From Felis catus (lineage: Eukaryota): a DNA stretch of 64,000 bases. The position numbers and the translations under genes were made by a program. The notes beneath the pieces are model-generated. The model was not told the DNA's origin. It did no database searches and was given only the letters and a program-made list of their open reading frames with translations. Positions 7,965 through 56,085 of the stretch are shown piece by piece. The DNA lies in NCBI RefSeq assembly GCF_018350175.1, contig NC_058368.1:85872001-85936000 (forward strand). The letters are read 5' to 3'. Each line of letters begins with the position of its first letter. The first letter of the stretch is position 1.

Positions 7965-7985
7965 GTAAACTCCAGGAAGAATATG
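7965..7985 (+). CDS. 21-nt phase-1 heptad micro-exon A0, (G)KLQEEY
   Basis: ctctaac branch-like site, pyrimidine tract and aag acceptor; GTAAACTCCAGGAAGAATATG; consensus gtaagt donor. Confidence 0.75.
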
Positions 7986-9129
7986 GTAAGTCATTAATTA
8001 CTTCCTTGTGTTTTTTGGATTTATCTCGATATCAAAAGATAAGATTTGTTAAAAAGAATATTTAGGAGAAAAACATTTGGTAAAGATAGAAGGAAATAAA
8101 TACTGATTACGAATTTGGGGTTGTGCATTTCCTTATCTTTGTCTTCATTAAGTTAAGTTTCCATGAGCTCTGTTGGATCATTGGGTGTATAATACCAAGG
8201 AGTTTGCAAGTATTGCTTTGATTCTACAGAGAGGAGAAGCTGGTTAATACCTGGGCAAAATAGAAAAGGAAGGTCTGCAGTAACCCACCAGAAATCCTGA
8301 ACAGGCACATGGTGCTACATTTCAATGCAGAGCACAGCCTGGTCCACCATCCAAATCTCTACTAATGTTACCCATTCTCATTTTTTGTTGGCTAGTTTCC
8401 AGCATACATTGAACTTGCCAATCCATGTCATTGAAACTGAGAAAAGCAAGCTTGTGTCAAATGCAAGTGTAGAATCTTTTTTTCTCTTCTGCATTTTCAA
8501 AACATCCTCATGTTTTGAGGATTCTTTCTAGCCTCCTCTGACCCCCTCACATTTTAAATCTTTCCTCATGTGCTACAGACGAGTTTCCAAGGTATGAATG
8601 GGTGTTTGTATTATCATCAGTGTATGCACTCTCTGAAGTGTCGGGGAAAATTCATGTCTTTCAATGCAAGGAATTCTTCTTGGCATGAATGATGAAGACT
8701 GATTCACTGTAACAGGTTATTCCTGACTCTGGATATATTCCTCTCTCAAAGGCTCGCTCATCCTGTCCCAGTCTCTTGAAGTACAGATCCCATGTGTAAT
8801 CCGGATGAACTTTCTTAGGGAATATCCTATCATGAGCTCCACACAATCAACAGATGGAGGGACATAGACCAACTTAGTTCTTGTAGAAAGGAAACTGTAG
8901 ACAATGGAATTATGAGCATATTTCATGATACTCCAGAGTCCCTTAGAAAAAGTCTGTTTGAGATGATGGACACAAGTCCTGCTTCTTTTTCCTCTTCTCC
9001 AGCTCTTATTTTTACATATTGCTTAATATTGTACCAAGTCAGAGGTTGAAAGATTTTAGTAAAGTCTATTTCTTTAGAAATTCTTCTATATATACTTTGT
9101 TGAATATTATATATTTTGTTTTTACACAG

Positions 9130-9150
9130 AACTCTTAACTGAACAGAAAG
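9130..9150 (+). CDS. 21-nt phase-1 heptad micro-exon B0, (E)LLTEQK
   Basis: ttttgtttttacacag acceptor; AACTCTTAACTGAACAGAAAG; gtgagt donor. Confidence 0.7.
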
Positions 9151-9789
9151 GTGAGTAGTATTTGCATATATTTTAGAGGCAAACATCATAGAAAAATATA
9201 CTCGATCAACTAAAATTTAGCAAACGATTTCTATATCATAAACTATCAATTCCTTCAATTGGTCTCCCTGTATAACATTAGTTAGTTATCAGTTGAAACT
9301 AATTTGTTTCTGGTAATGTTATAAATCATAGGTTGTGTAACCAATTTTCATTTAAATGCAGTCACACTGTGGCATTTTTGTTGAAATATTTTATCTGTTT
9401 ATTACATATTTGTTTTTAAGGGCCGAAGAAAGTATTCAGATATTCCTTTATGATTTTTTTCTACTATGACTTCCAAAATGCATAACCATACCTGAATTTT
9501 GATCGTCAACTTGGTTTCTGCTAATTCCTAACTTCTTTATAATTAAATATTTATTGATGCTAATTTGTACTTTATGTGATAAGACAACAACTAAATATAT
9601 AACAATCAAATTTTCGCTCTTTAAAAAAGATTTACATTTTTCCGTGTTATATGTAAAATTGTTAAATATGATCTTCATGTGTTTTGATATTCTGTATCCA
9701 GGTTGTTTTGTTTGTTTTGATTTTTTTTTTTTTTGTAACACTTGGCCTTTTTATTTAAGAGAAACTCGACTTTGTTACTTAAAAAAATA

Positions 9790-9993
9790 ATTTTTTAATG
9801 TTCATTTTATTTATTTTGAGAGAAAGATTGAAAGAGCAGGGGAGAGGCAGAGAAAGGGGGATAGGAAGGATCTCAAGCAGGCTCTGTGCTGTCAGTGCAG
9901 AGCTATGGGGACTCTAACTCAGGGACCATGAGATCATGTCCTGAGCTGAAGTCAAGAGTCAGATGCTCAAGTGACTGAGCTGCCAAGGTGCCC
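9790..9993 (-). mobile_element. Older CAN-SINE
   Basis: Diverged SINE head (gactgagctgccaaggtgccc) with T-rich tail; same insertion seen at ~17504-17708. Confidence 0.8.
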
Positions 9994-11186
9994 TAGGGGC
10001 ATGTTTCTTAGTGATTTTATCTCTGTGCCTTTGCACTTGTTTTTCTCTATTCCTGAAATGCTTTATTTCTGTGTTCATGTCACAATTAACTCTGCTTTCC
10101 CTGTGGGAACTTGGTGAACGATCACGACCACAGAGAGGGATCTGAGTACTCTATGGAATCCCACAGCCATGCAGTCTCTCATTATTGCTTAGCATGGTGC
10201 TTTGTGCATGTGACAGGTCAGAGTTCTGTGTCCTCCTTTACTGAAGGAGCCTGATCCGTGCAGAGCTAAGGGCAGCCAGTCCACAAATATTTGTTGAGTG
10301 GAAGAAATGATTTTTATTCATATTTTTTGTCGTTTTCTGTTTGTTTTCCTCCTTGGTTTTCTAGATTATGTAGGAAAAGAGAACAATATTTCCATTGCTA
10401 TCCTGTTCGATGGCTTAAAGATCACATAACACCTAAATTACAGAATCACATAGGTGAAAATTAATCTCTTACATTGGCTTCATCTCATAGTGGTCTGAAA
10501 CTCATGTCTTTGGACATACAACTCTGGGTCAGGTAAGGCAAGGTGAAGAATCTTTTCTTCACATTTCTGGCAGCTGTGCCAGAAATGGGCTTGCCCAGGA
10601 GACTTCCAGTTAGGATCTATGTGACCTCAGGACAACCATGTGGAGTGTGGATTTCATACCCCATGTGTGGATATAAATGGGGTGGGAGTTGGGAGGTAGC
10701 AACTTGATGAATACAGCAAAATCCTCCTTAAATGAAAGAGTCAGTATTTGAGCATTTAAGCACACAGATGACCCTCATGTGAGACCAATTTTTCTCCTTC
10801 GCTCCACCAACCCACACTCCTATACTCAGTTATCTTTCTTGGAGGATCCACAAGCTTCATGGGAAGTGAGAGGCAGTAGCAGACCTGAGGCAGAAGTGGC
10901 AAGGGACATTGCATGGCCTGGACAGTTAAATATTCAAAATATGCATCAGAAAAATAATTTGGCATAGTTTATTTGCAAGGATAATGGTGACATTTAATGA
11001 GATTTGTACCTTGCATGAACTTAATGATTTCCAAGTTATTCTACCAACCAGTTTTAAAGGCACATAGAACTATGTGTAGTATAGTCATATTTGGTCAAAT
11101 GTTTAATAAATATCTATTGTGAAGTTGCACTTATTTCAATGAATGAGGTACTTTCCAGGAAACATACTATACTATTGCTTACTTAA

Positions 11187-11425
11187 GACACTTCCTGGGG
11201 CACCTGGGTGGCTCAAATCCCTTGGGCGTCTAACATCAGCTCAGGTCCTGATCACAGGCTTTGTGAGTGGGAGCCCTGATTCAAGCTCTGTACTGACAGG
11301 TTGGACCCTGTAGCCTGCTTCAGATTCTGTCTCCCTCTCACTCTGCTCCTTTGCTCTCTCTCTCTCTCTCTCTCTCTCTGTCTGTCTCTTTCTCTCAAAA
11401 AGAAATAAACATTAATTATAAAAAA
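11187..11425 (+). mobile_element. CAN-SINE
   Basis: ggggcacctgggtggctca head, (CT)n tract, A-rich tail; imperfect flanking repeat aagacacttc/aagaaacttc. Confidence 0.85.
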
Positions 11426-11795
11426 TAAAGAAACTTCTCAAAACAGGGCTAAGGAAGACATTTGCTAACTCTTTGAAATAATAAAAAAAAGAGAGAGAGA
11501 AAGAGTGTTATGATGTGTTTGAGGGTAAAATCCATAGGAATTGCATTTCATCTTAAGTATGCTGCCATGTAGAGTTTATTCTGGAGGACAAATCAGCAAT
11601 AATTTAATAATTCCAGATTAATTTAAGATACAGTTGGTAGGTTTCCACGACTGTATGACTAAACAGCCTGTGGTTTGGAACATTTTAAGATGTGTATCAG
11701 GAAACCACCTACTTATTGTCAAAACTCCAAAACAGATGTCTTGAGTTTATTTGGTTCGCATTAAGGATTCATTACTTGAGCTGAGTATGCTAAAG

Positions 11796-11816
11796 ACTCC
11801 ACCTTCTTAATGCAAG
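11796..11816 (+). other. Candidate 21-nt micro-exon D0, (D)STFLMQ
   Basis: Exactly 21 nt between AG and a strong caag|gtaagt donor, but the pyrimidine tract is poor; array copies have a gtcggt donor. Confidence 0.3.
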
Positions 11817-12336
11817 GTAAGTAAAACATACCGTCATTCTGAGGAAATCCTCCGTTCTCACTTATTTTTTTTTCTTTTTTGTTTTTTACTTTTTTTAATT
11901 CTTCATTTTCTGCTTATCAGCTTCCCAATACTAGAAATGATCTCGTGCTAAAATGCGGTCCGTAAGGCCACTTTAACACTACCCTCTTATCTTGGAAAGG
12001 ATGGATGCAATTTTTAGGTCCTTAGCACCTATTTTCTCAAATTTCAGACCTCATCTAAAAGAGACGTTTTTTAATATCCTCTCTTGTATCTATATAAATG
12101 CATTTACAAGTCAAATAATATATTTTTAAATTTTGTGTTATTTTAGTATTGTTATCAATTATTATTATTATTCAGTAAATACATATCTCTTTCTATGTCA
12201 GAGAAATATACTGGATCGTCAAGTTTCTGGGTGTCTGTTTTCAAATGTGGACCAAGTTCTGGGACAGATTTTCCATGAATAGGGATAGGAAGACACTTTC
12301 TAACATACTTTTTTGTTTGTTTCTTTCTTTATGTAT

Positions 12337-12357
12337 GGAAAATAGAAGAAGAGAACG
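12337..12357 (+). pseudogene. Heptad micro-exon F0, (G)KIEEEN, acceptor mutated to AT
   Basis: Homologous to 19523-19543; strong gtaagt donor but preceded by tat instead of tag. Confidence 0.6.
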
Positions 12358-13529
12358 GTAAGTTGATATTTAGTTTTCAACATTCCACACTTGAAGTTTT
12401 TTTTTCATTTTAATAAAACAACAAAATTCAGACATTCCATTTATGGCCCAGACATGTTTCAAAGCAACTAAAATGTATTTCTGCTACTTTTTAAAAAGTG
12501 AACATAAGTATTCGTAAGACAGGGAATTATGTAGGCCTAAATGGAGAAGAACAAGATGCATCACCTGGTGGTGCTGAGGGCCGGGACTCAGGTCTTATAT
12601 CTGCCTCATTCAGTGAGGACAGTCAGCTTTTGTGCATATAATAATTAACCATTTATTGTATACTCAGTGCTTGAGAAACACTGAGGAGAAAAGATTCTCT
12701 TTCATTATTGAAGTTGCTGTCTTACAACAGATCCAAATTCCACATTCAAATAATAAAGGAAAAACAAATATTCTAAGAGTGTTATGGAAGAGGATTCATG
12801 ATGCTCTGAACACATACAATGGTGAGATTGGACTTATTCATGGGGTTGTGGATTTGCTGAAAAGCAACAATGAGGATGAGGCTAGTTATATTGAAAGGGA
12901 CAGGTAGGTAGGTCAAAGAGAAAACTGGTATGTGTAAAGCACAAAGCACAATATGCGTATACTTTTCAGAGTAGAGATCATGCACCTCTTTGGTTAGGTT
13001 AATTCCTAGTTATCTAATGGTTTCTGGTGTAATTATAAATAAGACTGATCCCTTGCTTTCTTTTTCTGCTGGTTCATTGTTGGTGTATGAGGAATCTAAA
13101 TAGAATTCTGCACATTGATTGTGTATCCTGTGACTGTACTAGATTTCTGTATCATTTCTAGAAATTCTTTTGTGAAATCTTTTGGATTTTCTATAACATG
13201 TCATTTGCAAGTAGTAGAAGTTTGACTTCTCTATCCATGTGGATGCTTTTTATTTCTTTGTATTGTCTGTTTGCTGAGGCTCAGATTTCCAGTATGATGT
13301 CAAGTAACAGGGGTGAGAGTGGATATCTATGTTTGTTTGTCTGTCTGTCTGTTTTTTTTTCTTTTTCTGACAAATCTTTCAGCGGTTCCCCATTGAGGAT
13401 GATATTAAGTGTTGGTCTTTCACATATGGTTATTATTTTGTTGATGTATATTCTATCCCTATTTTGTGGAGGACTTTTAATTATTATTATTTATTAGTAG
13501 TAGTAGTACTTTTTAAATCAAGAATTGAC

Positions 13530-15060: not shown

Positions 15061-15061
<1 letters not shown>

Positions 15062-15100: not shown

Positions 15101-15102
<2 letters not shown>

Positions 15103-15546
15103 ACTTCAAGTTTCATAGCATTGGGGTGATAAAAGATGCACAGAGTGATCTGACTCATTTCATCTCAGTGAGGCCTGAGATGTTATCTATTCTGGAGAAT
15201 GTCCCTAGTTCACTTGAAAAAAATGGACTATCTCAAAATAAAGGCTTTTTTCTTTCCCCCAAGCAAAGAACACCATTAAAAAATGAAAACCTAGTGACAG
15301 GGAATAGAAAATTGCAATCATAAATGTGTTAAGGGACTAACATCTAAAAAATATAATCAAATCATTCAATTCAATATCAAAACCTCAAACAGCCCAACTT
15401 AAAAATGTAGAAAATCTAGGATTAGATTTTTCAAAAAAATAAATAAATAAACATACATATGGCCCACAGTCCCATGAAAATATTTTAACCTGTAGAAGTT
15501 TTAGTTTGACTTTGTAACTTATTTGTGTTCTTTTTTCTTCTTCAAG

Positions 15547-15567
15547 GTAAACTCCAGGAAAAATATG
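15547..15567 (+). CDS. Heptad micro-exon A1, (G)KLQEKY
   Basis: Pyrimidine tract and caag acceptor; GTAAACTCCAGGAAAAATATG; gtaagt donor. Confidence 0.72.
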
Positions 15568-16643
15568 GTAAGTCATTTATTACCTCCTTATATTTATCAG
15601 ATTTATCACAGTACCTAGAGCTCAGGGGTTTCTTCTTTTTTAAGCATAGATTTCCAAGGAAAACAGTCAGTAAAAATAGAAGGAAATAAATACCAATTAG
15701 GAATCTGGGATTGTGTATTCCCTTCATTTGTCTTCATTAGCTTGTTCAAGTGTCCATGACCTCTGTTGGGTCATTGTGCTTATAAACCCTTGAGGTTTGC
15801 CAAGGTATCTTTGATTCTACAGAGAGGACACGCTGGTTAATACCTGGGCAAAGTAGAAAAGCAAGGTCTGCAGCAAACCCACCAGGAATCCTGAACAAGC
15901 ACATGGCACTACATTTCAAAGCAGAGCACAGCCTGGTCCACCATCCAAATGTCTACTAAAGTTAGCTATTCTCACTTTGTGTTGGTTAGATTGCAGTGTC
16001 CCTTTTACTTGCTAATCTGCTTTCACTGGAATTGAGAAAAGGGAGCTTGTGTCAAATGCACCTGTGGAACCTTTTTTCTCTTCTGCATTTTCAAAACATC
16101 CTCATGTATTGAGGATTCTTTCTAGCCTCCTGACCCCCTCACATTTTAAAATCTTTTCTCATGTGCTGCAGATGAGTTTCCAAGGTATGAATTGGTGTTT
16201 GTATTACCGTCAGTGTATGCCCCCTTTAAAGTGTCAGGGAAAAAGTTCGTCTCTCTATGCAAAGAATTCTTCTTGGCATGAGCGATGAAGACTGAGTCAC
16301 TGTTTCAGGTTATTCCTGACTCTGGATATATTCCGCACCCAAAGGCTCATGGATCCTGTCCCAGTCTCTTGAGGCACAGATCCCATGTGTAATCTCGATG
16401 AACTTTTTTGGGGGAATAGCCTATCATGAGCTCCACACAATCAACAGGTGGAGGGGCATGGACTGATTTATTTCTTATACACAAGACCTGCTTCTTTTCC
16501 CCTCTTCGCTAGCTCTTATTTTCACCTATTGCTAAATATCATACCAAGTCAGGCAAGAAAGACTTGAGTAAAATCTGTTTCTTTAGAAATTCTTCCATAC
16601 ATGCTTTATTGAATGCATTATTATTTATCTTGGTTTTACACAG

Positions 16644-16664
16644 AACTCTTATTTAAACAGAAAG
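16644..16664 (+). pseudogene. Heptad micro-exon B1, (E)LLFKQK, donor mutated GT>GA (same at 28819-28839, 40999-41019, 53179-53199)
   Basis: Homologous to 9130-9150; acceptor intact but followed by gagagt instead of gtgagt. Confidence 0.6.
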
Positions 16665-17274
16665 GAGAGTAGTTTTTGTTTCCATTTAGAGGCAAACATC
16701 ATAGAAAAATATACTCGATCAACTAAAATTTAGCAAACGATTTCCATATCATAAACATTTTGTTCAACTGGCCTACTTCTATAAGATTAGCTACCAGTTG
16801 AAACTATGTTGTGTTTGGTAACACTATAAATTATAGGCTGTGAAACCAATTGTCATTTAAACAAAGTCACACTGTGGCATCTTTGTTGGAAGATTTCACC
16901 TGTGTTTAAATATTTGTTTTTAAGGTCCCAGGAAAGTATTGAGATATTCCTTTATGATGTTTTCTACTATGACTTCTATAATGCATGTCCATATCTCAAT
17001 TTTGAACTTCTCCTGGGTTTCTGCTAATTCTTGACTTCTTTGTTATTAAATAGTTATTAATGATAACTTGTACATTCTATGGTAAGATGACAACCAAAAT
17101 ATCACAGTCTAGTTTTGGTTCGTTGAAAGTCTTTACATTTTTCTGCATTATATGTCAAACTGTTAAATATGATTTGCATAAGCTTTGATATTCTGTATCC
17201 ATATTTTATGTTTTTGTTTTGATTTTTGATTTTTTTTTTTTACCTTTTGACCTTGTTACTTAAGAGAGCGTTAG

Positions 17275-17503
17275 TTTTTTTTTTCTTTTTAATATTTTTT
17301 AACGTTTATTTATTTTTGAGACAGAGAGAGACAGAGCATGAACGGGGGAGGGTCAGAGAGAGGGGGAGACACAGAATCTGAAACAGGCTCCAGGCTCTGA
17401 GCGGTCAGCACAGAGCCCGATGCGGGGCTCGAACTCATGGACCGCGAGATCATGACCTGAGCTGAAGTCGGACGCTTAACCGACTGAGCCACCCAGGCGC
17501 CCC
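17275..17503 (-). mobile_element. Young cat-type CAN-SINE inserted at the tail of an older SINE
   Basis: Near-consensus CpG-rich body ending ccaggcgcccc; absent from copy 0. Confidence 0.92.
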
Positions 17504-17708
17504 AATTTTTTAATATTCATTTAATTTCATTTGAGAGAAATCATAAGAGAGAAGGGGAGGGGCAGAGAAAGAGGGATAGAACGGATCTCAAGCAGGCTCT
17601 GTGCTGTGAGTGCAGAGCTATGGGAACTCTAACTCACAGACCGTGAGATCATGTCCTGAGCTGAAGTCCAGAGTCAGATGCTCAAGTGACTGAGCTGCCA
17701 AGGTGCCC
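17504..17708 (-). mobile_element. Older CAN-SINE (present in every unit)
   Basis: Paralogue of 9790-9993. Confidence 0.8.
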
Positions 17709-18453
17709 TAGGCGCATGCTTCTTAGTGATTTTATCTCTGTGTCTTTGTACTTGTTTTTCTCTATTCCTGAAATACTTTATTTCTGTGCTCATGTCACAA
17801 TTAACTCTGCTTTCCCTGTGGGAACTTGGTGAACGATCACGACCACAGAGAGGGATCTGAGTACTTTATGGAATCCCACAGCCATGAGATCTCTCGTTAC
17901 TGCTTTACATGGTGCTTTGTGCAGGTGACAGGTCAGAGTTCTGTGTCCTCCTTTACTGAGAGAGCCTGATCCCTGCAGAGCTAAGGGCGGCCAGTCCACA
18001 AATATCTGTTGAGTGGAAGAAATGATTTTTATTCATATTTTTTGTCATTTTCTGTTTGTTTTCCTCCTTGTTTATCTATATTATATAAGAAAAGAGAACA
18101 AGAGTTCTATTGCTATCCTGTTCGATGGCTTAAAGATCACATAATACCTAACTTGTACAGAATCACTTAGGTGAAAATTAATCTCTTACATTGACTTCTT
18201 CTCATATTTTTCTGAACCTCATGTCTTTGGACATACACCTCTGGACCAGGTGAGGCAAAGTGAAGAATCCTGTCCTGGAGCTGCCAGTAATGGGCTTGCC
18301 CAGGAGACTTCCAGTTAGGCTCTACGTGACATCAAGACAACCATGTGGAGGGTGGATTTCTTATCCCATGCAAGGATACAAATGGGGGTGGGAGTTGGGA
18401 GGAGGTACTGTCCAGGAAACATACTATATTATTGCTTACTTAAGACACTTCTC

Positions 18454-18670
18454 GGGGCGCCTGGGTGGCTCAAGTCCCTTGGGCATCTGACATCGACTCA
18501 GGTCCTGATCACAGGGTTTGTGAGTGGGAACCCTGATTCAGGCTCTGTGCTGACAGGTTGGAGACTGTAGCCTGCTTCAGATTCTGTGTCCCTCTCCCTC
18601 TGCCCTTTCCTCGCTTGCACTCTCTCCTCTGCCTCTCTCTCTCCAAAATAAATAAACCTTTTTCTTTTTA
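18454..18670 (+). mobile_element. CAN-SINE (present in every unit)
   Basis: ggggcgcctgggtggctca head, CT tract, aaataaataaa tail; paralogue of 11187-11425. Confidence 0.85.
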
Positions 18671-19522
18671 AATAATGTAACTTCTCAAAACAGGCCTAGG
18701 GAAATCATTTGCTGACTCCTTGAAATACCAAAAAAAAGTTACTGTTTTGTGTTTGAGGGTAAAATCCATGAGGCATTCCATTTCACCCTATGTCTGCTGC
18801 CATGTAGAGTTTATTCTGGAGGACAAATCAGCATGAGTTCAGATTAATTTAAGATACAGTTGGGAGGTTTCCACAACTGATGACTAAACAGCCTATGGTT
18901 AGGACATTTTAAGGTGTGTATCAGGAAACCACCTACCTATTGCTCAAACTCCAAAACATATGTATTGAATTTTTTTGGTTGTTCACATTAAGGATTCATT
19001 ACTTGAGCTGAGTATGGTAAAGATACCACCTTCTCAATGCAAGGTCGGTAAAACATACTGTCATTCTGAGAAAATCCTCTGTTCTCAGTATTTTTTTTTT
19101 CCTTTTCCTTTTCTACTTATCAGTTTCCAGATATTATAAATGATCTTGTGCGAAAATAAGGTACTCAAGGACAGTTTCAGACTACCTTCTTATCTTGGAA
19201 ATAATGGGTAAAATTTGTGGGTATTTGCACCTATTTTCCCTAATTTTTGGACCTCACCCAAAAGAGACCTTTTGTAATATTCTGTTTTATGTCTATATAA
19301 ACACATATAAAAGCCAGATAGCTTTTTAGATTGTGTTATTTATTATTATTATTAATATTCAGTACATAAATTGCTCTTTCTATGTCAGAGAAATATACTG
19401 GATCGTCAGCTTTCTGGGTCTCAGTTTTCAAATGAGAACCAAGTTCCAGGACAGATTTTCCATTGACAGTGATAGGAGGACACTTTCTAACAGACTTTTG
19501 TTTTGTTTGTTTCTTTATATAG

Positions 19523-19543
19523 CAAAACTAGAAGAAGAGAACG
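19523..19543 (+). CDS. Heptad micro-exon F1, (A)KLEEEN
   Basis: ttctaac branch-like site, long T-rich tract and tag acceptor; CAAAACTAGAAGAAGAGAACG; weaker gtacgc donor. Confidence 0.6.
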
Positions 19544-20064
19544 GTACGCCCTATTTAGTTTTCAACATTCCACCCTTGATGTTCTTTCATTTTAATAAAA
19601 CAACAAAATACAGACATTGCATTTATGACCCAAACGCGTTTAGAAGCAGGTAATGTATCCTTCTGCTATTTTTAAAAACGTAACCTAAGTATTCCTAAGA
19701 CAAGGAATGATGTAGGCCTAAATGGAGAAGAATGCGATGCATCATGTGGTGAGTTCAGGGCTGGGACTCAGGTGTTAAATCTGCCCCATTCAGTGAGGGC
19801 GGTCATCCTTTCTGCATGTAGTAATTAGCTACCTATTTCATACTCAGTTCTTTAGAAACACTGAGGAAAGAAGACTCTCTTTTGCTATGGAACTTTCTAC
19901 CTTACGACAGATGCAAATTCCACATTCAAATAATAAAAGTAAAACAAATATGGAATATGTTATAGAAAAGGATTCTTGATGCTATGAAGACATAAAATAG
20001 AGTGGACTTATTCATGGGATTGTGGATTTGCTGAAAAGCAGCAATGAAGATGAGGCAAGTGGTA

Positions 20065-43903: not shown

Positions 43904-44423
43904 GTACGTCCTATTTAGTTTTCAACATTCCACCCTTGATGTTCTTTCATTTTAATAAAACAACAAAATACAGACATTGCATTTATGACCCAAACGCGTT
44001 TAGAAGCAGGTAATGTATCCTTCTGCTATTTTTTAAAACGTAACCTAAGTATTCCTAAGACAAGGAATGATGTAGGCCTAAATGGAGAAGAATGCGATGC
44101 ATCATGTGGTGAGTTCAGGGCTGGGACTCAGGTGTTAAATCTGCCCCATTCAGTGAGGGCGGTCATCCTTTCTGCATATAGTAATTAGCTACCTATTTCA
44201 TACTCAGTTCTTAAGAAACACTGAGGGAAAAAGACTCTCTTTGCTATGCAACTTGCTACCTTACGACAGATGCAAATTCCACATTCAAATAATAAAAGTA
44301 AAACAAATATGGAATATGTTATAGAAAAGGATTCTTGATGCTATGAAGACATAAAATAGAGTGGACTTATTCATGGGATTGTGGATTTGCTGAAAAGCAG
44401 CAATGAAGATGAGGCAAGTGGTA

Positions 44424-47400
44424 TTTCTTTAATATGAAATTTATTATCAAATTGGTTCCCATACAACACCCAGTGTTCATCCCAACAAGTACCCTCCTCA
44501 ATGCCCATCACCCAATTTCACCGCCCTCCAACCCCCCATCAACCCTCAGTTTATCCTCAGTTTTTAACAGCCTCTTATGGCTTGCCTTCCTCCCTTTCTA
44601 ACTTTTTTCCCCTTCCCCTCACCCCCCCCCCAATAGTCTTCTGTTACGTATCTCAGGAACCACATAAGAGTGAAAACATATGGCATCTGTCTTTCTCTGT
44701 ATGACTTATTTCACTTAGCCTAACAGTATCCAGTTCCATCCACATTGCTAAAAAAGGCCATATTTCATTCCTTCTCATTGCCACGTAGTATTCCATTGTA
44801 TATAGAAACCACAACTTCTTTATCCATTCATCAGTTGATGGACGTTTAGTCTCTTTCCATAATTTGGCTATTGTTGAAAGTGATGCTATAAACATGGGGG
44901 TAGAAGTGTCCCTATGCATCAGCACCCCTGTGTCCCTTGGATAAATTTCTAGGAATGCTATTGCTGGGTATAGAGTAGATCTATTTTTAATGTTTTGAGG
45001 AACCTCCACACTGTTTTCCAGAGAGGTTGTACCAGTTTGCATTTCCACCAACAGGGCAAGAGGGTCCCCGTTTCTCCACATCCTCTCCAGCATCTATAGT
45101 CTCCTGATTTGTTCATTTAGGCCACTCTGGCAGGCATGAGGTGATATCTCACTGTAGTTTTGATTTGTATTTAAATGATGATTACTGACTTTGAGCATCT
45201 TTTCATGTGTCTGATGGCCACCTAGATGTCTTCTTTAGAAAAGTGTCTAATCATGTCTTCTGTCTATTTCCTCACTGGATTATTTGCTTCTCAGGTGTGG
45301 AATTTGGTGAGTTTTTTTTTTTTTTTTTAATATAGATTTTAGATACTAGCCCTTTATCCTATAAGTCATTTGCAAATATCTTTTTCCCACTCCATAGGTT
45401 GCCCTTTGTGGTTTTGATTTGTATTTCCCTGATGAGGAGTGACATTGAGCATCTTTTCATGTGCCTGTTGGCCATCTGGATGTCTCTTTTAGAGAAGTGT
45501 CTATTAATGTCTTCTTCCCATTTCTTCACTGGATTATTTGTTTTTCGGGTGTGGAGTATGGTGAGTTCTTTATAGATATTGGAGACTAGCCCTTTGTCCG
45601 ATGTGTCATTTGGAAATATCTTTTCCCGTTCCGTTGGTTGCCTTTTAGTTTTGCTGATTGTCTCCTTTGCAGTGCAGAAGGTATTCGTCTTCCTGAGGTC
45701 CCAATAGTCATTTTTTTTGCTTTTAATTCCCTTGCCTTTGGAGATGTGTCAAGTAAGAAATTGTTGAGGCTGAGGTCGGAGAAGCTTTTTCCTGCTTTCT
45801 CCTCTAGGGGTTTGATGGTTCCCTGCTGAACATTCAGGTCCTTCATCCATTTTCAATTTATTATTGTGAATAGTGTAAGAAAGTGTTCAGTTTCATCCTT
45901 CTGTATGTTGCTGTCCAGTTTTCCCAACACCATTTGTTAAAGAGACTGCCTTTCTTTAATTGGAGATTCCTTCCTGCTTTGTCAAAGATTAGTTGGCCAT
46001 ACTTTTGTGGGTCCAATTCTGGAGTCTCTAATATATTCCATTGGTGTATGTGTCTGTTATTGTGCCAATACCATGCTGTCTTGATGATTACAGCTTTGCA
46101 TTGGAGGCTAAAGTCTGGGATTGTGATGCCTCCCACTTTGGTCTGCTTCTTAAATATTACTTAGGTTATTCCAGGTCTCTTGTGGTTCCCTACAAATTTT
46201 AGGATTCCTTGTTCTAGCTTAGAGAACAATGTTGGCGTAATTTTCATTGGGATTTCATTGAATGTGTGGATTGATTTGGGTAGTATCGACATTTTAACAA
46301 TATTTATTCTTCCAATCCATGAACACGGAATGTTTTTCCATTTCTTTGTATATTCTTCAATTTCCTTCAAGAGCTTTCTACACTTTTCAGCATACAGACC
46401 TTTCACATTTTTTGGTGAGGTTTATTCCTAGGTATTTTACGATTCTTGTAATTTTGAATGGGATAAGTTTCATTCTTTGTCTTTCCGTTACTTCATTTTT
46501 AATGTATAATAATGCAACTTATTTCTGTACATTGATTTTTTTTATCCTGCGACTTTGCTGAATTAATGTATCAGTTCTAGCAGGCTTTTGGTGGAGTCTA
46601 TTAGGTTTTCCATGTCATCTGCAAAAAGTGAAAGCGTGACTTCATCTTTGCCTTTTTTTATGACTTTGATTCCTTTTGTTGTCTGATTGCTGATGCTGGA
46701 ACTTCCAACACCATATTAAACAAGAGCGGTGAGAGTAGATATCCCTGACGTGTTCCTGATCTCAGGGAGGAAGCTCTCAGTTTTCCCCCATTGAGGATGT
46801 TATTAGCTCTGGGTTTTTGGTAATTGCCTTTTATGATGTTTAAGTATGTTCCTTCTATCCGACTTTCTCGAGGGTTTTTATTAAGAAAGGATGCTGAATT
46901 TTGTCAAATGCTTTTTCTGCATCGATTGACAGGATCATATGGTTCTTTTCTTTTCATTTATTAATGTGATGTATCACATTGATTGATTTGAGAATGTTGA
47001 GCCAGCCCTGCAGTCCAGGAATGAATCCCACTTGATCGTGGTGGATAATATTTTTTATATGCTGTTGAATTTGGTTTGCTAGTATCTTGTTGAGAATTTT
47101 TGCATGCATATTCAATAGGAATTTTGGCCTCTAGTTCTCTTTTATTGCTGGGTCTCAGTCTGTCTTGGGGATCAAAGTAATGCTGGCTTCATAGAATGAG
47201 TCTGGAAGTTTTCCTTCTCTTTCTATATTTTTGAAAATCTTGAGAAGGATAGGTATTATCTCTACGTTAAATGACTTGTAGAATTCCCCAGGGAAGACTT
47301 CTGGCCCTGGACTCTTATTTGTTGGGAGATTTTAGATAACTGATTCAATTTATTCGCTGGTTATGGGTCTTTTCAAGTTTTCTAGTTCGTCCTGTTTGAG

Positions 47401-50400
47401 TTTGGGAAGTGTGTGGGTGCGTAGGAATGTGTCCGTTTCTTCCAGCTTGTCCAGTTTGTTGGCATATAGTTTTTTTGTAGTATTCCCTGATAATTGCTTG
47501 TATTTCTGAGGGATTGGTTATAATAGTTCAATTTTAATTAATGATTTTATCTATTTGGGTCTTCTCCCTTTTCTTTTTGAGATGTGTGGCTAGAGGTTTA
47601 TCAATTGTTCATTTTTCAGAAAATATACTCTTGGTTTCATTGATCTACTACAGTTTTTTTTTTTTTTTTTTAGATTCTATATAGTTTATTTCTGCTGTGA
47701 TTTTTATTTCTCTTCTTCTTCTGGGTTTGGGTGTCTTTGCTGTTCTGCTTCTATTTCCTTTAGGTCTGCTGTTAGATTTTGTATGTGGGATTTTTCTTGT
47801 TTCTTGGGAAAGGCCTGGATTGCAATGTGTTTTCCTATCAGGACTGCCTCTGCTGTATCCCAAAAACTGTTGGATTGTTGTATTTTCATTTTAATTTGTT
47901 TCCATACATTTTTAATTTCTTCTCTAATTGCCTGGTTGACACATTCATTCTTTAGTAGGGTGTTCTTTAACCACCATGATTTTAGAGGTTTTCCAGGCTT
48001 TTTCCTGTAGTTGATTTCAAGTTTCATAGCATTGTCCTCTGAAAGTGTGCATGATATGTTCTCAATTCTTTATACTTATTAAGGGCTGATTTGTGTCCCG
48101 GTATGTGATCTATCTTGGAAAATGTTCCATGTGCACTGGAGAAGAAAGTATATTTTGTCACTTTGGGATGCAGAGTTCTAAATATATCTGCCAAGTCCAT
48201 CTGACCCAATGTATCATTCAGGGCTCTTGTTTCTTTGTTGATCCTGGTAGAGATGATCTATTCATTGTTGTATGTGGGGTATTAAAGACCCTGCAGTTAC
48301 CACATTCTTATCATTAAAGTTGCTTATGTTTGTGATTAATTGTTTTATATATTTGGGGGTTTCTGTATTCGGCGCATAGACATTTATGATTGTTAGCTCT
48401 TCCTGATGGATAGACTCTGTAATAATTATATAATGACCTTCTTCATTTCTTGTTACAGCCTTTAATTTAAAGTCTAGTTTGTCTGATATAATTATGGCTA
48501 CTCCAGCTTTCTTTTGACTTCCAGGGGCATGATAAATAGTTCTCCATCACCCACTTTCAATCTGAAAGCGTTCCCAGGTCTGAAATGAGTCTCTTATGGA
48601 CAACAAATAGATGAGTCTTGTTTTTTATCCATTCTGACACCCTATGACTTTTGACTGGAGCATTCATTCCATTTACATTAAGTGTTATTATTCAGTGTTA
48701 AAGATATGGGTTTGGAGTCATTGTGATGTCTGTAGGTTTCATGCTTGCAGTGATGTCTCTGGTACCGTGTGGTGCTTACAACATTTCACTCACAGAGTCC
48801 CCCTTAGAATCTCTTGTAGGGCTGGTTTAGTGTGATGAATTCTTTCAGTTTTTGTTTGTTTGGGAAAACCTTTATCTCTCCTATTCTGAATGACAGCCTT
48901 GTTGAATAAAGGATTCTGGGCTGCATTTTTTTTTTCCCTACTGATCACATTGTAGAATTCATGTTGGTGGCATAAATATTTACAACTGTGAGATCTACTT
49001 GTTGGATAGACCACGTCACTTTGATATAGTATCCTTTGTCATTTCTTGTTACTGTCTTTGGTTTAATGTCTACTCTGCCTGAGATAAGTATTGCTACTCT
49101 GGCTTTCTTTCCACAGGCATTGGCGTGATAAGTATTTATCCCTCTGTCCCTTCCCATTCAATCTGCAGGCATTGTGAGGTCTTAAATGAGTCTCTTATAG
49201 ACAGCATGTAGAAAGGTCTTGTTTTTTTTTTCCTCTATTGTTTTTGTTTTTATTCTTTACTGATACTATATGTCTTTTGATTGGAGCACATCCTACACTT
49301 ACATTCAGAATAAATCTATATACAGGTATATACATGTATTTAGTGTCATTTTAATACTTGTTTTGTTGTCTCACCTGGATGTGTTCTCTTATCCTTTTTG
49401 TTTGTCACTTTTTTTCTTCCTTCCCACTTAAACAGTCCCCTTTAATATTGTGCACAGGGCTGGTGTAGTGGACATAAAGGTTCAGCTCCTTTAGTTTTTG
49501 TTTCTCTTGGAAAGTCTTTATCTGCTTCTGTTCTATATGATAACCTTGTTGTATAGAGTATACTAGGTGATGAGTTTCCCCGTCAGGACATTGAATACAC
49601 CATGGCTTACCAAGTTTCTGTCGAGAGATCTGCAGCCAACCTTGTGGTTCTTCCCTTGTAATGTAGGCAATTCTTTTCTTTCTTGCTAATTGGATGTTTG
49701 TTCTTTGTCAGAATATTTTACACATTTAACTACAATATTTTGGGTTTAGGTCTGCTTTGGTGGATTTCTGTGGGAGTTTTCTGTGCCTCCTGGATTCGGA
49801 TGGCTGTTTCACTCCCCAGATTTGGGAAGTGTTAGCCTATTATTTATGTAGACTACCCTTATGTTCCCTTTTATGTCTCTTCTTCTGCAACTCTGGTGAT
49901 ACAAATTTAAGTTTCATAGATACACTGAGTTTCCTAAGTCTATTTTCAGGCTTCCCTGAAGACTTCTTTTATTTTTTCAAGCAGAGCAGGAATCTTATGA
50001 TGGCTGCTTTAAATTCTCCATCTGGTATAGTACTTTTCTTGGTTTTACATAAACCTCTGGCTTTTATCTTATATTCTTTCATTTCAGAGGGTTCCTCAGT
50101 CCTGGCATTGTCTATACATCTTTCTGTCTTCTTATTGGTGTTCGGAAAGCCTGTTTCATTTCCTGCTCCTTAGAGTAGTTGCGTTATGAAGACGAGGTCA
50201 AATGGTGTCCAGGTCCTGATGCTTTAAAGAGTGTCTCTCGAGTGACCTACATACACTAGGCTCCTGTGTTTTGGCTGCACTGCCTTTCAGGCCAGGCATC
50301 TTCAAAGGTTGTCCTTGCCTGCTGGTGCAGTGCTTGAACCTTGGTGAGAGTGTGGCAAATTTTATGTAGGTGTGCTCTGGTGTACAATTCAATGAGACTC

Positions 50401-51235
50401 ATGTGGTTTCCACTAGGACTGAAGCCTTGCAGAACAAAGAGTTTGGGAGACGTGGTTGACAGCATTTCTGCTCATCACCTGAGGAAGAAGACTGCCTGGC
50501 TGGGACTGAGACACACTTGACAGAGAAGGGGAATAGTCATTGAACACAGGGCTGTGGACTTGCTGTAAGCAGGAGAGGCAGCCAGTCTCAGCACTGTGTA
50601 CTTCCTAAACATCCTTCTCTGTCTTTTCTGAAAGTATGGGGGAGTGTAGTGTCACCAACCAACTTCTTTGTCTCCAGTTGAGGGGTTATTGCATCTTTTG
50701 AGAAGCACTCTCAGAGGAGCATTGAAAGTCCCCCTTTGTGCCTCCAGTGTTGGTGTGTTTCAGATCCTCATCTTCATGCTGTCTGTGTCTAAGTTGTTTG
50801 CCTGACTTTCAGCCAGGAGCATTGCAGTGCCTGCTGGCCTCCATCCCAGCCAGGCACGCTGATCTTTAAACCTCCAGACTTTAAGCCCTGTTCATCAAAA
50901 GGCCTCAAGGAAATCAACCCCTCTGCTTGTCCCAGCCAATGGCTTTTAAGAAGTGTCCATCTCATTCATTCCACTGTGTACTCCTAGAACTTTTTGTGTT
51001 TCTCTGCAACCAAGATCGTCTCCCCTCCATAGCACCTAGGAAACATGTGGCCCCAAACCACATCTCTGCATTTCCTACTATCCTTGATGTGTCCTCTTTC
51101 CTCCCTCAAGGATGAGCTTGTTTTATCAGTACTCAAGATTAATTCTTGGGTACTGAGAATGATTTGACAGTTTTCTAGTGTGTTTGAGGAAGGAGAAAAA
51201 CCTAGGGTCCTCCTACTATGCAACCACCTCAGCTC
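44424..51235 (-). mobile_element. Composite LINE-1, unit 3
   Basis: Copy of 20065-26875. Confidence 0.9.
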
Positions 51236-52078
51236 TGAAGCAGTTGACCTTGACAAGGAGGGAAAAGTTCGTTATCAGCTTCTTGGATTTATAGCATAAT
51301 ATTCCATAGTATAATATTCTTGTGTTGTATAAATAGGGTAATAGTATAATCTGTCATAGTAGAACATAAAGCTATGGCAAGGAAATGGTACTTTTACTGG
51401 GACTAAAGTAGACAGAGGGATCAATACAAGAGAAATGAAACTGCAAAAAGAGTTCCACATTTGTACGGTGAATAAATCAATGACAAAGGAAGCAAGAAAA
51501 TGTAATGGGAAAAATGCCCCTTCATTAAATGATGTTGAGAACACTGGTCACAGATATTTACAAAATATTGATATTTGACCACTTTCCCACCATATGCTAT
51601 AGTAAACTCATAATGGGTGAAAACATAAATCTAAGATATGAAGTATAAAACCTTTAAATAAAACCTAAGAAGTAAGTTCTTTGGCAACCTCCTGAGCAAT
51701 ATTTACTTGAAACTGGTTCCTCAGACAAGGATAGAAAAAACAGTAACAAATTATTCGGACTATCTCAAAATAAAGGCTTTTTTCTTTCCCCCAAGCAAAG
51801 AACACCATTAAAAAATGAAAACCTAGTGACAGGGAATAGAAAATTGCAATCATAAATGTGTTAAGGGACTAACATCCAAAAAATATAGTCAAATCATTCA
51901 ATTCAATATCAAAACCTCAAACAGCCCAACTTAAAAATGTAGAAAATCTAGGATTAGATTTTTCAAGAAAATAAATAAATAAACATACATATGGCCCACA
52001 GTCCCATGAAAATATTTTAACCTGTAGAAATTTTAGTTTGACTCTGTAACTTATTTGTGTTTTTTTTTCTTCTTAAAG

Positions 52079-52099
52079 GTAAACTCCAGGAAAAATATG
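52079..52099 (+). CDS. Heptad micro-exon A4, (G)KLQEKY
   Basis: Same sequence and splice sites as A2. Confidence 0.72.
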
Positions 52100-53807
52100 G
52101 TAAGTCATTTATTACCTCCTTATATTTATCAGATTTAGCACAGTACCTAGAGCTCAGGGGTTTCTTCTTTTTTAAGCATAAATTTCCAAGGAAAACAGTC
52201 AGTAAAAATAGAAGGAAATAAATACCAATTAGGAATCTGGCATTGTGTATTCCCTTCCCCTTTGTCTTCATTAGCTTGTTCAAGTGTCCATGACCTCTGT
52301 TGGGTCATTGTGCTTATAAACCCTTGAGGTTTGCCAAGGTATCTTTGATTCTACAGAGAGGACACGCTGGTTAATACCTGGGCAAAGTAGAAAAGCAAGG
52401 TCTGCAGCAAACCCACCAGGAATCCTGAACAAGCACATGGCACTACATTTCAAAGCAGAGCACAGCCTGGTCCATAATCCAATTGTCTACTAAAGTTAGC
52501 TATTCTCACTTTGTGTTGGTTAGATTGCAGTGTCCCTCTTACTTGCTAATCTGCTTTCACTGGAATTGAGAAAAGGGAGCTTGTGTCAAATGCACCTGTG
52601 GAACCTTTTTTCTCTTCTGCATTTTCAAAACATCCTCATGTATTGAGGATTCTTTCTAGCCTCCTGACCCCCTCACATTTTAAAATCTTTTCTCATGTGC
52701 TGCAGATGAGTTTCCAAGGTATGAATTGGTGTTTGTATTACCGTCAGTGTATGCCCCCTTTAAAGTGTCAGGGAAAAAAGTTCGTCTCTCTATGCAAAGA
52801 ATTCTTCTTGGCATGAGCGATGAAGACTGAGTCACTGTTTCAGGTTATTCCTGACTCTGGATATATTCCGCACCCAAAGGCTCATGGATCCTGTCCCAGT
52901 CTCTTGAGGCACAGATCCCATGTGTAATCTCGATGAACTTTTTTGGGGGAATAGCCTATCATGAGCTCCACACAATCAACAGGTGGAGGGGCATGGACTG
53001 ATTTATTTCTTATACACAAGACCTGCTTCTTTTCCCCTCTTCTCTAGCTCTTATTTTCACCTATTGCTAAATATCATACCAAGTCAGGCAAGAAAGACTT
53101 GAGTAAAATCTGTTTCTTTAGAAATTCTTCCATACATGCTTTATTGAATGCATTATTATTTATCTTGGTTTTACACAGAACTCTTATTTAAACAGAAAGG
53201 AGAGTAGTTTTTGTTTCCATTTAGAGGCAAACATCATAGAAAAATATACTCGATCAACTAAAATTTAGCAAACGATTTCCACATCATAAACATTTTGTTC
53301 AACTGGCCTACTTCTATAAGATTAGCTACCAGTTGAAACTATGTTGTGTTTGGTAACACTATAAATTATAGGCTGTGAAACCAATTGTCATTTAAACAAA
53401 GTCACACTGTGGCATCTTTGTTGGAAGATTTCACCTGTGTTTAAATATTTGTTTTTAAGGTCCCAGGAAAGTATTGAGATATTCCTTTATGATGTTTTCT
53501 ACTATGACTTCTATAATGCATGTCCATATCTCAATTTTGAACTTCTCCTGGGTTTCTGCTAATTCTTGACTTCTTTGTTATTAAATAGTTATTAATGATA
53601 ACTTGTACATTCTATGGTAAGATGACAACCAAAATATCACAGTCTAGTTTTGGTTCGTTGAAAGTCTTTACATTTTTCTGCATTATATGTCAAACTGTTA
53701 AATATGATTTGCATAAGCTTTGATATTCTGTATCCATATTTTATGTTTTTGTTTTGATTTTTGATTTTTTTTTTACCTTTTGACCTTGTTACTTAAGAGA
53801 GCGTTAG

Positions 53808-54037
53808 TTTTTTTTTTTCTTTTTAAGATTTTTTAACGTTTATTTATTTTTGAGACAGAGAGAGACAGAGCATGAACGGGGGAGGGTCAGAGAGAGAGGG
53901 AGACACAGAATCTGAAACAGGCTCCAGGCTCTGAGCGGTCAGCACAGAGCCCGATGCGGGGCTCGAACTCATGGACCGCGAGATCATGACCTGAGCTGAA
54001 GTCGGACGCTTAACCGACTGAGCCACCCAGGCGCCCC
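53808..54037 (-). mobile_element. Young CAN-SINE, unit 4
   Basis: Copy of 17275-17503. Confidence 0.9.
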
Positions 54038-56064
54038 AATTTTTTAATATTCATTTAATTTCATTTGAGAGAAATCATAAGAGAGAAGGGGAGGGGCAGA
54101 GAAAGAGGGATAGAACGGATCTCAAGCAGGCTCTGTGCTGTGAGTGCAGAGCTATGGGAACTCTAACTCACAGACCGTGAGATCATGTCCTGAGCTGAAG
54201 TCCAGAGTCAGATGCTCAAGTGACTGAGCTGCCAAGGTGCCCTAGGCGCATGCTTCTTAGTGATTTTATCTCTGTGTCTTTGTACTTGTTTTTCTCTATT
54301 CCTGAAATACTTTATTTCTGTGCTCATGTCACAATTAACTCTGCTTTCCCTGTGGGAACTTGGTGAACGATCACGACCACAGAGAGGGATCTGAGTACTT
54401 TATGGAATCCCACAGCCATGAGATCTCTCGTTACTGCTTTACATGGTGCTTTGTGCAGGTGACAGGTCAGAGTTCTGTGTCCTCCTTTACTGAGAGAGCC
54501 TGATCCCTGCAGAGCTAAGGGCGGCCAGTCCACAAATATCTGTTGAGTGGAAGAAATGATTTTTATTCATATTTTTTTGTCATTTTCTGTTTGTTTTCCT
54601 CCTTGTTTATCTATATTATATAAGAAAAGAGAACAAGAGTTCTATTGCTATCCTGTTCGATGGCTTAAAGATCACATAATACCTAACTTGTACAGAATCA
54701 CTTAGGTGAAAATTAATCTCTTACATTGACTTCTTCTCATATTTTTCTGAACCTCATGTCTTTGGACATACACCTCTGGACCAGGTGAAGCAAAGTGAAG
54801 AATCCTGTCCTGGAGCTGCCAGTAATGGGCTTGCCCAGGAGACTTCCAGTTAGGCTCTACGTGACATCAAGACAACCATGTGGAGGGTGGATTTCTTATC
54901 CCATGCAAGGATACAAATGGGGGTGGGAGTTGGGAGGAGGTACTGTCCAGGAAACATACTATATTATTGCTTACTTAAGACACTTCTCGGGGCGCCTGGG
55001 TGGCTCAAGTCCCTTGGGCATCTGACATCGACTCAGGTCCTGATCACAGGGTTTGTGAGTGGGAGCCCTGATTCAGGCTCTGTGCTGACAGGTTGGAGAC
55101 TGTAGCCTGCTTCAGATTCTGTGTCCCTCTCCCTCTGCCCTTTCCTCGCTTGCACTCTCTCCTCTGCCTCTCTCTCTCCAAAATAAATAAACCTTTTTCT
55201 TTTTAAATAATGTAACTTCTCAAAACAGGCCTAGGGAAATCATTTGCTGACTCCTTGAAATACCAAAAAAAAAAAAAAAGTTACTGTTTTGTGTTTGAGG
55301 GTAAAATCCATGAGGCATTCCATTTCACCCTATGTCTGCTGCCATGTAGAGTTTATTCTGGAGGACAAATCAGCATAAGTTCAGATTAATTTAAGATACA
55401 GTTGGGAGGTTTCCACAACTGATGACTAAACAGCCTATGGTTAGGACATTTTAAGGTGTGTATCAGGAAACCACCTACCTGTTGCTCAAACTCCAAAACA
55501 TATGTATTGAATTTTTTTGGTTGTTCACATTAAGGATTCATTACTTGAGCTGAGTATGGTAAAGATACCACCTTCTCAATGCAAGGTCGGTAAAACATAC
55601 TGTCATTCTGAGAAAATCCTCTGTTCTCAGTATTTTTTTTTTCCTTTTCCTTTTCTACTTATCAGTTTCCAGATATTATAAATGATCTTGTGCGAAAATA
55701 AGGTACTCAAGGACAGTTTCAGACTACCTTCTTATCTTGGAAATAATGGGTAAAATTTGTGGGTATTTGCACCTATTTTCCCTAATTTTTGGACCTCACC
55801 CAAAAGAGACCTTTTGTAATATTCTGTTTTATGTCTATATAAACACATATAAAAGCCAGATAGCTTTTTAGATTGTGTTATTTATTATTATTATTAATAT
55901 TCAGTACATAAATTGCTCTTTCTATGTCAGAGAAATATACTGGATCGTCAGCTTTCTGGGTCTCAGTTTTCAAATGAGAACCAAGTTCCAGGACAGATTT
56001 TCCATTGACAGTGATAGGAGGACACTTTCTAACAGACTTTTGTTTTGTTTGTTTCTTTATATAG

Positions 56065-56085
56065 CAAAACTAGAAGAAGAGAACG
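56065..56085 (+). CDS. Heptad micro-exon F4, (A)KLEEEN
   Basis: Same sequence and splice sites as F2. Confidence 0.65.

Follow-up and report, generated by a model that had tools for sequence, protein, structure and literature searches.

Can the copy number of a kilobase-scale tandem array inside a gene set the length of part of its protein? This question is raised by a 64,000-nucleotide (nt) stretch of the domestic cat genome (Felis catus, assembly GCF_018350175.1, contig NC_058368.1, positions 85,872,001 to 85,936,000 of the forward strand), in the following referred to as the window. A first-pass annotation of its letters had recognised ten 21-nt micro-exons, each coding for one heptad of a putative coiled coil, had tentatively placed them in the interior of a gene of the butyrophilin family (BTN and butyrophilin-like, BTNL), and had proposed that the copy number of a 12.18-kb tandem array acts as a length ruler for the coiled coil. 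Short heptad exons between the transmembrane (TM) segment and the B30.2 (PRY/SPRY) domain are a described trait of butyrophilins (PMC6790196, PMC4046983), where the heptads are encoded by 'several very short exons' (PMC6790196). The reading that we favour, and consider likely, is that the window belongs to an intact butyrophilin-family gene, that its heptad exons are real, that the array arose by unequal crossing-over and that the array exons are usable.

The gene becomes visible when the flanks are included. With 100 kb on either side of the window, a total of 264 kb was examined, which contains no Ns. An open reading frame (ORF) in the upstream flank codes for a typical butyrophilin IgV domain, with felid butyrophilin-like proteins as its database matches (93-98% identity), and tblastn with three felid proteins placed all their parts on the + strand of the flanks at 88-98% identity. 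The exons outside the heptad region are as follows (all coordinates are window-relative, negative ones lying upstream of its first letter):

Leader exon: -74485..-74371, + strand
IgV exon: -55284..-54937, + strand, V-set (PF07686, E 1.6e-13)
Butyrophilin-type IgC exon: -49523..-49242, + strand, PF22705 (E 8.3e-26, 90.3 bits, cut-off 27)
TM exon: -39441..-39328, + strand, ending in RARKSK
27-nt exon a: 94903-94929, + strand, ERIKLLGKE
27-nt exon b: 95071-95097, + strand, GLKYLRLYA
B30.2 (PRY/SPRY) exon: 96814-97379, + strand, SPRY E 9.5e-27, PRY E 6.1e-7

The leader, IgV, IgC and TM exons are situated 47-82 kb upstream, and the PRY/SPRY exon 33 kb past the window end. The latter is intact, with an open frame of 187 amino acids (aa) at 96816-97376 and a TAA stop at 97377-97379. 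The TM exon is 95-98% identical in tblastn to the TM segment of two felid models (P0005 and P0006); its single TM stretch and the basic stop-transfer motif RARKSK were read straight from the sequence, without a TM predictor. All internal exons are AG/GT-flanked and in phase 1, and joining 24 exons by their coordinates yields 1,827 nt with one ORF of 608 aa and a single terminal stop. The IgV, IgC, TM and B30.2 exons which the annotation had expected on the + strand outside the window are thus all present, in frame, and its proposal of a butyrophilin-family gene holds. These exons establish the gene and its family; as predicted from the sequence, it extends over ~172 kb of the + strand with the window as its middle, in the order leader, IgV, IgC, TM, juxtamembrane micro-exons, PRY/SPRY.

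Among solved structures, the closest to the Prionailurus orthologue (P0005) are human: BTN2A1 (E 1.6e-100, over the full length), BTN3A3 (2.9e-98), BTNL8 (3.2e-81) and BTNL3 (4e-76), with BTN3A1 and BTN3A2 also among the closest relatives. The database names of the orthologues conflict (BTN1A1-like, BTN2A1-like, BTN3A2-like, BTNL2, BTNL9, BTNL10, ERMAP-like).

All ten 21-nt segments are present where they had been reported, and direct reading of the letters gave the same AG/GT boundaries, terminal G, phase-1 frame and peptides. Each is preceded by a pyrimidine-rich tract with AG and followed by GTAAGT, GTGAGT or GTACG[CT]; the last base is G, the first codon is split 1+2, and the frame is open. 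In order they read (G)KLQEEY and (E)LLTEQK, then four times (G)KLQEKY / (A)KLEEEN. Their competence as exons at the level of sequence is hence evident. The inventory, by contrast, was incomplete: a 12-nt exon coding for EEEN and a dead copy of exon B in every unit had been overlooked. Similarly, the 12.18-kb unit is real in the assembly, but the array runs past the window and holds seven exon pairs instead of four. We distinguish the following exons, where A, B and C denote exon types and the number 0 marks the single copies outside the array:

Heptad exon A0: 7965..7985, + strand, 21 nt, phase 1, GKLQEEY, AG/GTAAGT
Heptad exon B0: 9130..9150, + strand, 21 nt, phase 1, ELLTEQK, AG/GTGAGT
Micro-exon C0: 12346..12357, + strand, 12 nt, phase 1, EEEN (aaaatag, exon AAGAAGAGAACG, gtaagt)
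Exon A1: 15547..15567, + strand, GKLQEKY
Exon C1: 19523..19543, + strand, AKLEEEN
Exon A2: 27719..27739, + strand, GKLQEKY
Exon C2: 31704..31724, + strand, AKLEEEN
Exon A3: 39899..39919, + strand, GKLQEKY
Exon C3: 43883..43903, + strand, AKLEEEN
Exon A4: 52079..52099, + strand, GKLQEKY
Exon C4: 56065..56085, + strand, AKLEEEN
Exons A5-A7: starts 64261, 76440 and 88618, + strand, 21 nt each
Exons C5-C7: starts 68246, 80424 and 92602, + strand, 21 nt each

The A0 peptide comes right after the RARKSK of the TM exon in felid orthologues; the B0 heptad reads D/G-LL-T/I-EQK in orthologues and ELLREQK in a paralogue. Exon C0, between the exons at 9130 and 15547, has its EEEN after the B0 heptad in 13 of 13 felid models that reach this point, and two Neofelis isoforms do without the A0-C0 block. 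At the same position a seal orthologue has a form of 7 aa, ETIEKEN. By its sequence, C0 is what remains at the 3' end of a formerly 21-nt exon after a shift of the acceptor by 9 nt downstream. The C exons of every unit contain, 9 nt in, an internal CTAG, an in-phase alternative acceptor at the same site that C0 uses, and each C exon could therefore give either seven residues or the four of the EEEN form.

The same heptads stand between TM and B30.2 in felid gene models. The 13 models that reach the juxtamembrane region share RARKSK, GKLQEE[Y/H/C], xLLxEQK and EEEN, followed by zero to three copies of GKLQEKY / xK[L/I]EEE[N/K]; the consensus after EEEN is (GKLQEKY-AKLEEE[NK])n-ERIKLLGEE-GLKFLRLYA-ENVTLD, with n = 0-1.5 before B30.2. 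Counting only modules before B30.2, the juxtamembrane regions compare as follows:

Panthera: 0 modules, 37 aa
Leopardus X1: 1 module, 51 aa
Prionailurus X1: 1.5 modules, 58 aa
Prionailurus X2 (X1 minus one 14-aa C-A pair): 44 aa
Felis catus genome, full inclusion (conceptual): 7 modules, 135 aa

A further model, Leopardus X3, has three A-type and two C-type exons in succession. The peptides of A0, B0, EEEN, A, C and the 27-nt exons are the same in orthologous felid models, and from IgV to the end of TM (247 aa) the conceptual product shares 99.2% of its residues with Prionailurus and 96.8-97.6% with other felids. For the B30.2 exon the identity to orthologous felid models is 90-93%. We also considered decay of B30.2 in the cat lineage and rejected it, the lineage-private changes numbering five, equal to Leopardus.

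The array itself is highly regular. Positions 15225-51818 and 27397-64000 are 99.85% identical over 36,610 nt, and the whole structure can be written as X(YX)6, where X (~4.9 kb) carries exons A and C and a dead B copy, and Y measures ~7.3 kb. Its elements are:

Tandem array: 15225-93193 (77,969 nt; window part 15225..64000), + strand, six units of ~12,180 nt and a partial unit of 4,898 nt
Older module X0 (A0, B0, C0): 7913..12886, + strand, 79-90% identical to 15491-20060 and to each later unit
Dead exon B copy of unit 1: 16644..16664, + strand, frame open, donor GT changed to GA
Dead exon B copies of later units: 28819-28839, 40999-41019 and 53179-53199, + strand, likewise with GA for GT in the donor
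Y part of unit 1: 20115..27396, + strand, intronic, T-rich (AT skew -0.27 to -0.34), decayed LINE-like sequence
Mosaic cross-over zone of unit 2: 31855..32085, + strand, variants of the last copy (U7) upstream and of the first copy (U1) downstream
Equivalent zones of later inner units: 44034-44264 and 56216-56446, + strand

Each unit contributes 42 coding nt (21 + 21), in frame, as had been claimed, and the introns within the array are 4 and 8 kb long. Measured against unit 2, identity is 99.60% for unit 1, 99.98-100% without any mismatch for units 3-6, and 99.67% for the partial unit 7. Between the older module X0 and X, exon A is conserved at 20 of 21 positions vs 54-73% in its flanks, exon C at 12 of 12 vs 76-82%, and the B remnant at 18 of 21 (flanks 54-82%). 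Among 53 ORFs of one unit (unit 2), none had a Pfam match above the cut-off, with RVT_1 (- strand) and OAF_C only below it, so the array unit hides no other gene. Rfam gave no match in the window at gathering score. ARAGORN calls a 'tRNA-SeC (tca)' on the - strand of each unit (17413-17498, 29586-29671, 41766-41851, 53947-54032), which is most likely the tRNA-derived head of an intronic short interspersed element and not a gene.

How did such an array come about? The variants distributed along X are informative here. Forty sites are private to the first unit (columns 121-4684) and 12 to the last, whose 11 substitutions all fall in columns 4493-4789; four sites are private to the inner units (columns 4641-4678), and two homopolymer sites vary among units, the inner ones included. 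In Y there are two substitutions, both private to unit 1, and five sites of single-base indels. Up to about column 4462 the inner units share their variants with the last copy, from about column 4693 onwards with the first copy, and in between they are a mosaic of the two. Each is a recombinant of both outer copies, which is the mark that unequal crossing-over leaves. Exchange between a downstream and an upstream X copy would produce this pattern, and would also explain why the copy number is not an integer. According to the course of events that these data suggest, the three-exon module A0-B0-C0 would have been duplicated long ago to give rise to module X, in which exons A and C stayed alive and B died; two X copies flanking a 7.3-kb spacer rich in LINE sequence would then have expanded to X(YX)6 by unequal crossing-over. 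The X/Y boundary falls within repeat-like sequence.

The expansion is apparently recent. Units 2-6 (12.18 kb each) show no substitutions between them and differ only by single-base indels at six sites. Such identity suggests recency: at ordinary mammalian mutation rates, five 12-kb units without a substitution would be no older than some tens of thousands of years, unless homogenisation is still going on. In either case the copy number of the array may vary between individual animals.

The 21-nt phase-1 exons can be read as encoding juxtamembrane heptads that form an amphipathic alpha-helical stalk. The array peptide (98 aa) has Leu at position 3 in 14 of 14 heptads and, at position 7, Tyr in seven and Asn in seven, which agrees with the pattern noticed earlier of Leu every seven residues and Tyr or Asn four positions later (d and a of a coiled coil); position 2 is Lys and position 5 Glu throughout, and Pro is absent. 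If Leu is taken as d and Tyr/Asn as a, the Lys at g of each A heptad would face the Glu at e of the next C heptad, and by the usual rules this would fit a parallel dimer. A hydrophobic periodicity of 3.5 residues is found in natural felid tails (z 2.7 and 2.9, reached by 48 and 33 of 2,000 shuffles); the short Panthera tail has z 1.2 (not significant), and the z of 6.5 for the conceptual 135-aa stalk is inflated by repetition.

Since exons A and C are both of phase 1-1, any subset of the array exons keeps the frame, and amplification of this kind is therefore tolerable inside a gene. With AG/GT boundaries, pyrimidine tract and phase 1-1 retained, any number of array exons might be spliced in without breaking the frame, and inclusion of all modules would lead to the 608-aa protein with a stalk of 135 aa, as opposed to 37-58 aa in other felids, i.e. 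a stalk two- to four-fold longer. The EEEN exon and the internal CTAG acceptor of the C exons would insert additional steps of four residues. A function of array copy number as a length ruler of the coiled coil is therefore structurally possible; we infer that array exons are spliced in and that the length of the product would follow both copy number and exon skipping.

None of the components is without precedent, and the locus combines known kinds of structures: the heptad exons of mammalian BTNs, the tails of chicken BG proteins and intragenic arrays of the LPA KIV-2 type. Mammalian BTN/BTNL genes have the same order as the cat gene (IgV, butyrophilin-type IgC, TM, short heptad exons, B30.2). 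In the literature they are credited with 'only a few heptad repeats' (PMC5938342), whereas the cat gene has up to 17 heptad-type micro-exons plus two 27-nt exons, with a conceptual stalk of 135 aa, and derives its extra exons from a 12-kb segmental array. For human BTN3A/BTN2A1, chain pairing and the way in which the intracellular signal reaches the ectodomain are reported to be decided by the juxtamembrane helices; models of BTN3A show its helices as coiled-coil dimers in control of pairing and signalling (PMC10665462). The closest orthologues also differ, with no module in Panthera, one in Leopardus X1 and 1.5 in Prionailurus X1 vs seven in the cat gene.

The long cytoplasmic tails of chicken BG proteins are described as dimeric coiled coils encoded by many 21-nt exons with split codons; depending on the gene and the haplotype, there are 27 to 37 such exons (PMC5938342, PMC4046983). 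BG genes have one Ig domain, no B30.2 and at least 27 21-nt exons, whereas the cat gene has IgC, B30.2 and at most 19 small exons; the hydrophobic positions, given for chicken BG as codons 4 and 7 of the exon, are 3 and 7 in the cat gene. The presence of IgC and B30.2 means that the cat gene is not a BG member. BG size polymorphism is reportedly due to variation in the length of the heptad region. A full-length stalk of the cat protein, BG-like in length, would work like a BG tail.

The nearest parallel to the array is LPA KIV-2, described as an intragenic kilobase-scale tandem with a unit of 5.5 kb and a highly variable copy number that tracks LPA gene length. Each KIV-2 unit contains two exons, and the array sets the size of apo(a). 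The cat array is similar in having a kilobase-scale head-to-tail unit with whole exons that sum to a multiple of three (21 + 21 nt). The LPA unit, however, adds a folded kringle, with polymorphism and expression proven, while the cat unit adds two heptads. If true, the cat gene would be a second example, beside LPA-type arrays, of a kilobase-scale intragenic repeat able to scale a protein; and if the stalk grows in steps of 14 residues through a 12-kb unit, it would be a natural experiment on stalk length in a mammalian butyrophilin. Literature searches turned up no description of this felid cluster, and none of an amplified heptad array in a mammal.

Several observations weigh against the favoured reading. 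A 31-nt probe of the exon A/C junction had no match in metagenome contigs, and none with up to two mismatches in the window's own genome, where there is consequently no processed retrocopy. Among the proteins of 204-651 aa in a collection of 5.8 billion, no array is longer than in the Leopardus and Prionailurus models. The sole exactly matching UniRef entry labelled Felis catus is a protein of 159 aa, with leader, IgV and a read-through of the IgV donor. The felid orthologue evidence consists of computational XP_ models (e.g. XP_047712925 from Prionailurus, XP_045339230 from Leopardus and XP_060492527 from Panthera onca). In the stalk itself, the recurrence of Gly at intervals of 14 residues and of Asn at half the core positions would make for a weak coiled coil, and a single stable charged helix is an alternative. 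Finally, identical inner units are a setting in which assemblers mis-count copies.

Three alternatives were weighed. The most serious one, which we regard as possible if somewhat unlikely, accepts the gene and the array as real but holds that the array is no more than a young copy-number variant, neutral or slightly harmful, that most or all of its exons are skipped or transcripts end early, and that protein length is not proportional to copy number; the locus would then be a common case of segmental amplification within the introns of a gene from a known family. Micro-exons are easily skipped, and felid models already differ by the skipping of modules (P0005 vs P0042). Macaque BTN3A transcripts with a missing heptad have been described (PMC6790196). 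Several felid isoforms end within the heptad region by read-through (P0049, P0050, P0055, P0057), much as the only exactly matching Felis catus model stops after IgV by intron read-through. No protein with more than three modules, and hence no long-array protein, is annotated in the searched protein collection, and with the B30.2 exon as query no full-length protein of the same species was found, the best match being 93% identical. On the other hand, the splice signals of all 14 array exons are those found in the copies that other felids use, and the Leopardus X3 model does string three A-type and two C-type exons. The array exons are also purine-rich (GAA runs), which generally favours inclusion.

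Improbable, in our view, is the alternative that the copy number is an assembly artefact, in which case the animal would have just the two outer X copies, or a small number of units, and the assembler would have multiplied identical 12-kb units. The single-base indels by which units 2-6 differ do resemble differences of the read-error type, and the count of identical inner units is that of the assembly. However, the particular combination of last-copy and first-copy variants in the inner units, together with their four private sites, requires at least one true third unit; moreover, the 264 kb are free of Ns, and assemblers more often collapse such arrays than expand them.

The weakest alternative takes the segments for AG...GT windows that arose by chance within repeated DNA of introns. 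As eight of the ten segments are copies of two sequences, there are only four independent observations, and the chance test was done on these four types. We scanned 198,203 nt of non-redundant sequence (window and flanks, with array units 2-7 taken out) for AG-21nt-GTR with a last base G, an open frame, at least 13 of 20 upstream pyrimidines, at least three charged or polar residues and Leu at heptad position 3. The + strand had four matches, which are precisely the four exon types (at 7965, 9130, 15547 and 19523), and the - strand had none; in 60 first-order Markov simulations, both strands together had 0.1 matches on average and never more than one. A looser scan of all 264 kb yielded 23 rows on the + strand, of which 16 are A0, B0, A and C exons, vs two rows on the - strand. 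With these counts, the same peptides between TM and B30.2 in 13 felid protein models, the exons found by tblastn, the 608-aa ORF and the better conservation of exons than flanks between old paralogues, the chance reading is refuted for practical purposes.

The favoured reading can be carried further. Two gut metatranscriptome runs labelled as RNA share 0.91 and 0.73 of 149 sampled words from the B30.2 exon and its 3' flank (they may contain DNA), and several small runs guessed to be RNA share 0.54-0.89 of such words. This is only suggestive, and would fit the gut-epithelial expression known for some butyrophilin-like genes. In its boldest form, which we think doubtful, the array would be a segregating, very young copy-number variant that sets the length of a rod-like stalk (37-135 aa, ~5-20 nm if helical) of a gut-expressed butyrophilin-like protein. 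If true, B30.2 would be held at differing distances from the membrane, with altered pairing with neighbouring paralogues; the variants would form a natural allelic series for stalk length tuning butyrophilin signalling to gamma-delta T cells, a mammalian parallel to the tail-length polymorphism of chicken BG.

The gene is part of a cluster of at least three butyrophilin-like genes (C1:85.64-86.27 Mb), and comparison with the paralogues reveals the history of further heptad exons. At one paralogous locus (L002) an exon is identical to A0 while the surrounding DNA is only 79% identical; another (L003) has GKLRKEY and ELLREQK. The downstream paralogue contains A0, B0, a further candidate 21-nt exon, GKLHEEL, two 27-nt exons and B30.2, in agreement with a Lynx model. 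The cat gene, by contrast, carries a dead GKLHEEL exon, whose acceptor and greater part were removed by a deletion of 19 nt. One and the same butyrophilin-like gene thus combines the birth and death of exons: one heptad exon was lost by this deletion, one trimmed to 12 of its 21 nt, one inactivated by mutation of its donor and two multiplied. The remnant of GKLHEEL lies at ~94780-94800, ~100 nt upstream of the exon at 94903, with only …ACTTG/GTAAGT left; the exon is present in the paralogue, the Lynx model and the seal orthologue. Small duplications of heptad exons near the membrane also occur in a bat protein (GSLKEEN-GSLKEKH-GSLNEKH) and a seal protein (GSIKKKH-GSLKKKH), and the number of heptads in this butyrophilin-like subfamily is generally labile.

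Downstream of the intact B30.2 exon, a second, degenerate one is found at 126024-126438 (+ strand, 29 kb past the intact one, 63-79% identical to felid B30.2), with a stop, a frame change and a TTC-type microsatellite insertion. We had considered this SPRY-like ORF at 126 kb as the B30.2 of the gene and rejected it for its stops, frameshift and microsatellite insertion and because of the intact exon at 96.8 kb. A short exon (…VMVSDLINTD…) exists in two copies, at ~102080-102170 and 130512-130580, and Leopardus isoform X3 takes it as an alternative 3' end. The degenerate B30.2 and the two …VMVSDLINTD… exons look like a partial tail duplication of the gene.

In the wider surroundings, at least two full paralogous butyrophilin-like genes flank the gene (C1:85,639,789-85,712,074, - strand, and 86,122,576-86,196,266, + strand), together with a B30.2 fragment with stops (85,771,111-85,771,533) and an IgV with stops (86,268,270-86,268,647). 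More Ig and B30.2 exons occur 2-3 Mb away (87.68-87.83 Mb and 89.15-89.37 Mb). The butyrophilin-like cluster is adjoined by an olfactory-receptor pseudogene on the - strand (window-relative 148265-149179), which is broken over three frames and matches Pfam 7tm_1 (E 3.3e-22) and 7tm_4 (1.5e-15, 3e-7, 8e-3).

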